Shown: positions 47,895 to 56,398 of the stretch, piece after piece
How positions within the stretch are numbered: position 1 is the stretch's first letter
How the letters are laid out: each line of letters starts with the position of its first letter
Origin: Escherichia coli
Lineage (GTDB): Bacteria > Pseudomonadota > Gammaproteobacteria > Enterobacterales > Enterobacteriaceae
Assembly (NCBI RefSeq): GCF_003334815.1
Contig: NZ_QOWO01000020.1
Reading direction: 5' to 3' (one strand)
DNA length: 64,000 bases
Position numbers and translations under genes: made by a program
Notes under the pieces: model-generated
Database searches by the model: none
What the model was told of the DNA's origin: nothing
Seen by the model: the letters and a program-made list of their open reading frames with translations, nothing else

Positions 47895-53958
<6,064 letters not shown>

Positions 53959-54131
53959 TACTTACCCGCAGAAATCATTCTGCGGGTATTAAGTTGCTTT
54001 CTTATAAATTAATACAGATTAATCCTGGTTATTTGCTTTATTTATCACCAGTCATCCGGTATAGTTCTTCATAATCTCTGCAAAATCATCGTGTTGTAAT
54101 ATTCTCTCATCACTCTCCATCAAATTTTCTT

Positions 54132-54149
54132 TTTTTCTCCATAATTGGC
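54132..54149 (+). promoter_or_regulatory. candidate BaeR box in the spy promoter
   Basis: TTTTTCTCCATAATTGGC about 140 bp upstream of spy; matches remembered BaeR consensus. Confidence 0.4.
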
Positions 54150-54202
54150 GCAAAAGTGTTTTTTACACTTTCATTGTTTTACCGTTGCTCTGATTAATTG
54201 AC

Positions 54203-54217
54203 GCTAAAGTCAGTAAA
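54203..54217 (+). promoter_or_regulatory. candidate CpxR tandem site in the spy promoter
   Basis: GCTAAAgtcaGTAAAG, resembling GTAAA-N5-GTAAA. Confidence 0.35.
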
Positions 54218-54287
54218 GTTAATCTCGTCAACACGGCACGCTACTTAAGAAAGCCGTAATAAATAACTGAAAGGAAGGATATAGAAT

Positions 54288-54773
54288 ATGCGTAAATTAA
54301 CTGCACTGTTTGTTGCCTCTACCCTGGCTCTTGGCGCGGCTAACCTGGCCCATGCCGCAGACACCACTACCGCAGCACCGGCTGACGCGAAGCCGATGAT
54401 GCACCACAAAGGCAAGTTCGGTCCGCATCAGGACATGATGTTCAAAGACCTGAACCTGACCGACGCGCAGAAACAGCAGATCCGCGAAATCATGAAAGGC
54501 CAGCGTGACCAGATGAAACGTCCGCCGCTGGAAGAACGCCGCGCAATGCATGACATCATTGCCAGCGATACCTTCGATAAAGTAAAAGCTGAAGCGCAGA
54601 TCGCAAAAATGGAAGAACAGCGCAAAGCTAACATGCTGGCGCACATGGAAACCCAGAACAAAATTTACAACATCCTGACGCCGGAACAGAAAAAGCAATT
54701 TAATGCTAATTTTGAGAAGCGTCTGACAGAACGTCCAGCGGCAAAAGGTAAAATGCCTGCAACTGCTGAATAA
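54288..54773 (+). CDS. spy: periplasmic ATP-independent chaperone Spy
   Basis: ORF track 161 aa; signal peptide; LTDAQKQQIREIMK motif. Confidence 0.95.
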   Translation: MRKLTALFVASTLALGAANLAHAADTTTAAPADAKPMMHHKGKFGPHQDMMFKDLNLTDAQKQQIREIMKGQRDQMKRPPLEERRAMHDIIASDTFDKVKAEAQIAKMEEQRKANMLAHMETQNKIYNILTPEQKKQFNANFEKRLTERPAAKGKMPATAE

Positions 54774-54794
54774 TCTTTCAGCCAAAAAACTTAA

Positions 54795-54858
54795 GACCGC
54801 CGGTCTTGTCCACTACCTTGCAGTAATGCGGTGGACAGGATCGGCGGTTTTCTTTTCT
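54795..54858 (+). terminator. intrinsic terminator downstream of spy
   Basis: 18-bp stem accgccggtcttgtccac/gtggacaggatcggcggt followed by tttcttttctc. Confidence 0.6.
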
Positions 54859-54897
54859 CTTCTCAAACAGTTGTAAAAAAAGCCTGATCACCACTAA

Positions 54898-56398
<1,501 letters not shown>

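Follow-up and report, generated by a model that had tools for sequence, protein, structure and literature searches.

Through which sequences do the envelope-stress regulators BaeR and CpxR act on spy, and from which promoter is the gene transcribed? That both regulators control spy is established (PMC2731931, PMC12503329, PMC7657598): under ethanol, knocking out baeR lowered spy expression (log2 -5.8), as did knocking out cpxR (log2 -3.0; PMC7657598), induction of the gene by chlorite requires baeR (PMC12503329), and overproduction of BaeR or CpxR raised spy 40- to 75-fold as measured by qRT-PCR (PMC2731931). As a reporter of the Bae and Cpx envelope-stress responses the gene is textbook material, and its promoter, BaeR box and CpxR site are already known. 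Nothing here is new in that respect; the analysis carries little weight as discovery and is useful mainly as a correction.

The locus was analyzed within a 64,000-nucleotide stretch of Escherichia coli DNA (the window), in which positions 53900-54900 are identical (100% of bases) to the astE-spy-ves region of E. coli K-12 MG1655 in reverse orientation, with MG1655 position 1825625 corresponding to window position 54288. All 5426 complete E. coli genomes contain the region at an identity of at least 95%, with the annotations astE and spy. The spy coding sequence (54288-54773, plus strand), annotated as spy in every one of these genomes, encodes a periplasmic chaperone of 161 aa; astE ends at 53958, and ves is the next gene after spy on the same strand. 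The comparative set consisted of 71 non-Escherichia spy loci from more than 20 genera, and 79 loci in total were used for the hairpin searches. Five nucleotides past the astE stop codon lies a perfect 11-bp inverted repeat (TACCCGCAGAA / TTCTGCGGGTA, 53963-53988), presumably the terminator of the ast operon. An Rfam scan of 53900-55000 returned no known RNA family, its sole match being a meaningless miRNA on the spy terminator (E = 0.46), and of the small ORFs examined within the spy leader none appeared to be meaningful. A full-text literature search with the spy promoter sequences found no paper.

The BaeR box and additional BaeR-type units

A preliminary description of this DNA, made from the sequence alone, had pointed to a BaeR-like and a CpxR-like sequence within 160 bp of the spy start, and the two indeed begin 156 nt and 85 nt before the ATG (54288), respectively. 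The BaeR-like sequence, TTTTTCTCCATAATTGGC (54132-54149, plus strand), agrees at 18 of 18 positions with the published BaeR consensus 5'-TTTTTCTCCATDATTGGC-3' (Nishino 2005, as quoted in PMC11644481, PMC3799227 and PMC3915751), and includes a core, TCTCCATAA, at 54136-54144, where the BaeR core motif TCTNCANAA (Yamamoto 2008, as quoted in PMC3799227) is matched. It is the sole match with two or fewer mismatches in the 64 kb, where 0.21 matches would be expected by chance even at up to three mismatches. One-mismatch copies of the 18-mer are also present in MG1655 upstream of mdtA (TTTTTCTCCCTTATTGGC) and acrD (TTTTTCTCCACGATTGGC), for which the chance expectation is at most 0.01. Moreover, the box is retained across the 71 non-Escherichia loci at a comparable distance to the start codon, with a mean identity of 0.81 over the whole box and 0.85 over the core, and with CTNCA present in 66 of the 71. 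The BaeR assignment is thus borne out as an exact consensus match shared with the mdtA and acrD promoters; it is also textbook knowledge that published papers and curated site lists already contain.

The arrangement around the box resembles that of the other two promoters in part. As in spy, the box of the mdtABCD-baeSR and acrD promoters is preceded by extra CTCC-type units at a spacing of 10-11 nt. However, the box of mdtA and acrD lies 54-88 nt from the ATG and adjoins the core promoter, whereas that of spy lies 139-156 nt from the ATG with the CpxR site between the box and the -35 element. Furthermore, the CpxR site listed for acrD, GTATAAAAGGGCATG, is upstream of the BaeR box, while in spy the order is reversed.

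Upstream of the spy box are two tandem BaeR-type units, TCTTCATAA and TCTGCAAAA (54066-54085, plus strand), both perfect matches to TCTNCANAA and arranged as TCTTCATAA-TC-TCTGCAAAA, so that they stand 11 nt apart from start to start, the spacing typical of sites of the OmpR/PhoB family. The three TCTNCANAA matches at 54066, 54077 and 54136 are among just 11 in the whole window. A weaker unit, TCTCCATCA (54114-54122, plus strand), has one mismatch to the motif and is 22 nt upstream of the main core; its CTCTCC is conserved in most genera. The tandem site is joined to the main box by a 21-nt direct repeat with 76% identity, the copies of which are 70 nt apart (54065-54085, TTCTTCATAATCTCTGCAAAA; 54135-54155, TTCTCCATAATTGGCGCAAAA). 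In the upstream tandem unit CTNCA is found in 50 of 71 loci, and its conservation is 0.72.

Are these matches regulatory at all, and if so, through which of them does BaeR act in vivo? Intergenic DNA has many short AT-rich motifs, and the consensus for CpxR is a degenerate one, so that resemblances arising by chance and devoid of any regulatory role might be supposed. However, the 18-mer agrees with its consensus at every position, the elements have stayed conserved from genus to genus while the leader next to them (54239-54262) has drifted, and published genetic and ChIP data contradict the supposition, which has virtually no probability left and is already refuted. As for BaeR occupancy, published ChIP-exo data (PMC7657598) contain two peaks upstream of spy. 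On conversion of coordinates, the stronger one, peak_2 (MG1655 1825823-1825843, S/N 9.25), falls at 54070-54090 on the tandem BaeR-type site, and peak_1 (MG1655 1825677-1825711) at 54202-54236 on the inferred core promoter; the two flank the 18-mer box and neither overlaps it. The position of the stronger peak, the lack of a peak at 54132-54149 and the retention of the upstream unit in most genera would suit a model in which BaeR works in vivo mainly via the tandem site, with the 18-mer box secondary or cooperative. On the other hand, the core of the box is better conserved (0.85 vs 0.72), the box is the element common to mdtA and acrD, and ChIP-exo peak borders may be the two ends of a single long protected stretch, which here would include the box. 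A leading role of the tandem site is thus held to be unlikely, and the 18-mer box is kept below as the main BaeR site.

Placement of the CpxR site

The second sequence named in the preliminary description was a tandem TAAAG repeat, GCTAAAgtcaGTAAAG (54203-54218, plus strand), which lies inside the spacer of the inferred core promoter and had been likened to a CpxR site. The CpxR site listed for spy is another sequence, GTAAAACAATGAAAG (Table S1 of PMC9600279, a list of 41 known CpxR sites, citing De Wulf 2002). The window has a single, exact copy of it, on the minus strand at 54168-54182, which lies 35 nt upstream of the TAAAG repeat and ends 16 nt before the -35 element. When 127,972 window positions were scored with a CpxR weight matrix built from the 40 other listed sites (i.e., with the spy site left out), this site scored 14.6 bits and took rank 1. 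Its conservation is 97%, and none of the 71 non-Escherichia loci lacks the motif; in 61 of 69 upstream regions from other species, its orthologue is the best-scoring 15-mer of the region. The adjoining conserved TTTTTTACAC (54158-54167) is probably part of the same footprint. In layout, the listed site has two pentamers (GTAAA-N5-GTAAA) like those of cpxP, ppiA and yccA, but differs from that type in that its second pentamer is GAAAG rather than GTAAA and in that spy is encoded on the other strand. The CpxR ChIP-exo data gave no peak at spy, and spy is absent from the direct CpxR targets of that study (PMC7657598).

The TAAAG repeat fared differently under the same measures. With two mismatches to GTAAA-N5-GTAAA, it is one of 76 such matches in the window, compared with 57 +/- 7 in shuffled sequences, and taken alone it is not above chance. 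Divided into pentamers it reads GCTAA-AGTCA-GTAAA, with both mismatches in the first; if CTAAA is taken as the first pentamer instead, the spacer is just 4 nt, where CpxR sites have 5 (or 6). It scored 6.5 bits, which put it at rank 160 of the window, and the median over its orthologues in 69 regions was 3.3 bits. Conservation is uneven, being 58% in the first half and 94% in the second half, GTAAAG.

Could the repeat nevertheless be the functional CpxR site, be it the main one or a second, proximal one? The 94% conservation of GTAAAG is unusual in a spacer, seven of the 71 orthologues have just one mismatch to GTAAA-N5-GTAAA at the same position, and the top orthologue reached 11.3 bits. Against this stand a two-mismatch match no commoner than chance, the low rank and low orthologue median, a first half that is different in most genera, and a literature that lists another site. 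Moreover, a dimer bound between the -35 and -10 elements would be expected to obstruct RNA polymerase instead of helping it, and the promoter spacer is an unlikely location for an activator. Taken together, we consider a functional CpxR site at the repeat improbable. Of the CpxR half of the earlier call, the regulation of spy by CpxR stands on the literature and the placement does not: the listed site is elsewhere in the promoter, at 54168-54182 and on the opposite strand, while the repeat is a chance-level match at rank 160 with just its second half conserved. This half of the call is refuted as stated, by the very condition that the description had set; a weak second CpxR site may exist at 54203-54218. 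The value of the correction lies here: TAAAG repeats, taken as the motif, had pointed to a chance-level match in the promoter spacer and passed over the top-scoring, invariant site, which is 35 nt away and on the opposite strand.

Core promoter, 5' leader and terminator

The sigma-70 core promoter of spy is probably TTGACG-N16-TAATCT (54198-54225, plus strand), i.e., a -35 element TTGACG at 54198-54203 and a -10 element TAATCT at 54220-54225 separated by a 16-nt spacer, with the main transcription start site (TSS) predicted near 54230-54232. Three features point to this promoter: i) a block at 54186-54238 that is almost invariant across genera (54213-54238 nearly so) and is followed by a stretch, 54239-54262, where identity falls to 27%; ii) the position of BaeR ChIP-exo peak_1; and iii) a 5' stem at a fixed offset. 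The TTGAC of the -35 element is present in 71 of 71 loci. A sigma-70 consensus scan of 53900-55000 called no promoter, because the inferred -10 element is weak, with three of six positions matching. Within the spacer, just before the -10 element, GTAAAGT (54213-54219) is 94% conserved while the preceding 9 nt vary, an unusual constraint for a spacer. A BaeR-specific promoter directly after the box, with a -10 element TACACT at 54163-54168 by analogy with acrD, was considered and set aside, as the ChIP-exo peak, the invariant TTGACG and the conserved block are all further downstream.

The third of the features above is a stem-loop at 54233-54257 (plus strand), in which ACGGC (54233-54237) pairs with GCCGT (54253-54257) around a hypervariable loop. 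When stems were sought at a fixed offset, with shuffled and with shifted sequences as controls, one of 4-5 bp was found at the same offset in 79 of 79 loci, with a loop ranging from 3 to more than 30 nt. The full 5-bp stem was present in 70% of loci, compared with 4% when the downstream sequence was shuffled, and the variants CGAC/GTCG and GCGAC/GTCGC preserve pairing. Being situated at the start of the inferred spy transcript, the stem-loop is probably a stabilising hairpin. In Cedecea colo and Buttiauxella izardii the spy 5' leader also carries an insertion of ~120 nt (about positions 1050-1180 of each locus) that folds into a long imperfect hairpin of about -56 kcal/mol and resembles an ERIC/IRU-type enterobacterial repeat.

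At the other end of the gene, the preliminary description had noted an unusually long terminator with an 18-bp stem core (ACCGCCGGTCTTGTCCAC / GTGGACAGGATCGGCGGT). That core is contained in a still longer stem of 22 bp, including G-U pairs (54793-54814 with 54830-54851; the intrinsic terminator as a whole spans 54793-54860, plus strand), which begins 20 nt past the stop codon and is followed at once by UUCUUUUCUCUUCUC, with a U-rich UUUUCUUUUCUCUUCUC tail. Like intrinsic (Rho-independent) terminators in general, it consists of a G+C-rich hairpin that passes directly into a U-rich tract. The stems of typical E. coli terminators are about 5-14 bp long; that of spy measures 21-22 bp. As folded by RNAfold, the terminator has an energy of -40.8 kcal/mol (z = -6.9), and none of 200 shuffled sequences folded as well. 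An anchor search located the hairpin after spy in 72 of 79 loci. Across 40 species, RNAalifold gave 21 consensus pairs, eight of them with compensatory changes; the outer ten pairs (AAGACCGCCG / CGGCGGUUUU) are invariant in these species, while the inner pairs covary. The unusual length noted earlier is therefore confirmed, together with conservation and covariation of the stem. Selection acts on the long stem, whose simplest role would be that of a strong terminator and 3' stabiliser of a very highly induced mRNA. The base of the terminator (54793-54807) is also a near-palindrome, GACCGCCGGTC, after an A-run, so that the minus strand has a small hairpin followed by a T-run and was scanned as terminator-like; there is no convergent gene end at this place. 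A 3'-end mapping supplement (PMC7815308) had no entry for spy in the text that was searched.

Altogether, the spy region is very probably a sigma-70 promoter that is switched on by two envelope-stress regulators of the OmpR/PhoB family, BaeR and CpxR, and that is combined with a conserved terminator. In the proposed course of events, phosphorylated BaeR would bind direct-repeat units of the type TCTNCANAA, namely the main box at 54132-54149 (centred ~91 nt upstream of the inferred start) and the tandem site at 54066-54085. Phosphorylated CpxR would bind the tandem pentamers of GTAAAACAATGAAAG at 54168-54182 on the minus strand, centred ~57 nt ahead of the same start, with the BaeR box on one side and the -35 element on the other. 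The distances of 91 and 57 nt are themselves predictions, because the main TSS from which they are counted is one; they would suggest that both regulators activate from upstream, class I-like positions. BaeR and CpxR would then bring RNA polymerase to a core promoter whose -35 (TTGACG) is good and whose -10 (TAATCT) is poor. The resulting transcript would start at ~54231 with the small 5' stem-loop and end with the very stable 22-bp intrinsic terminator, which may also insulate ves.

Upstream promoter and conserved palindrome

Does spy possess a second start? The Kim 2012 supplement (PMC3415461) lists a TSS for b1743/spy, the one TSS found for this gene, and it is not at the inferred core promoter: it corresponds to A54073, which precedes the spy ATG by 215 nt. 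An upstream promoter can be placed accordingly at 54060-54073 (plus strand), with TATAGT at 54060-54065 as its -10 element; a TAYANT hexamer is present at this position in 60 of 71 loci. Transcripts started at A54073 would have every BaeR and CpxR site within their leader. In the searched part of that supplement (PMC3415461), a TSS for the K. pneumoniae orthologue of spy was not found.

Further upstream, a near-palindrome, ACAGATTAATCCTG (54014-54027, strand not assigned), with the core RGA-N4-TCY (54016-54025) forms a candidate factor-binding site. Of the 71 non-Escherichia loci, 67 share the core at the aligned position, with variation in the central four nucleotides, and conserved half-sites around a variable centre are what a candidate site of a dimeric factor would be expected to have. 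The RcsB box has been given as TN(G/A)GAN4TC(T/C)NA (PMC7913699); the spy palindrome matches its core and six of its eight specified positions, but the outer T and A are unmatched in E. coli and in most genera. Overproduction of RcsB raised spy 3.9-fold (PMC2731931). That the palindrome is an RcsB site is put forward as a lead. A sigma-54 promoter at CCTGG-N-TGC (54024-54035) was considered for the same stretch and rejected, the GG-to-GC spacing being 8 nt and not 12.

These elements would allow the control region of spy to be drawn longer, with a second conserved promoter ~215 nt before the ATG, a possible RcsB palindrome upstream of it, and the tandem BaeR site overlapping its start. We offer this extension tentatively and rate it as unlikely. 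If it were true, a third envelope-stress pathway would feed into spy, and BaeR might switch transcription from the upstream to the main promoter. The comparative data also amount to a clean map of conserved promoter blocks, some of them upstream of the region that is usually drawn. The block at 54014-54046, conserved across Enterobacteriaceae, consists of the near-palindrome (perfect in Siccibacter, CAGGAATATTCCTG) followed by TGCTTTATT, and lies upstream of every element named in the preliminary description.
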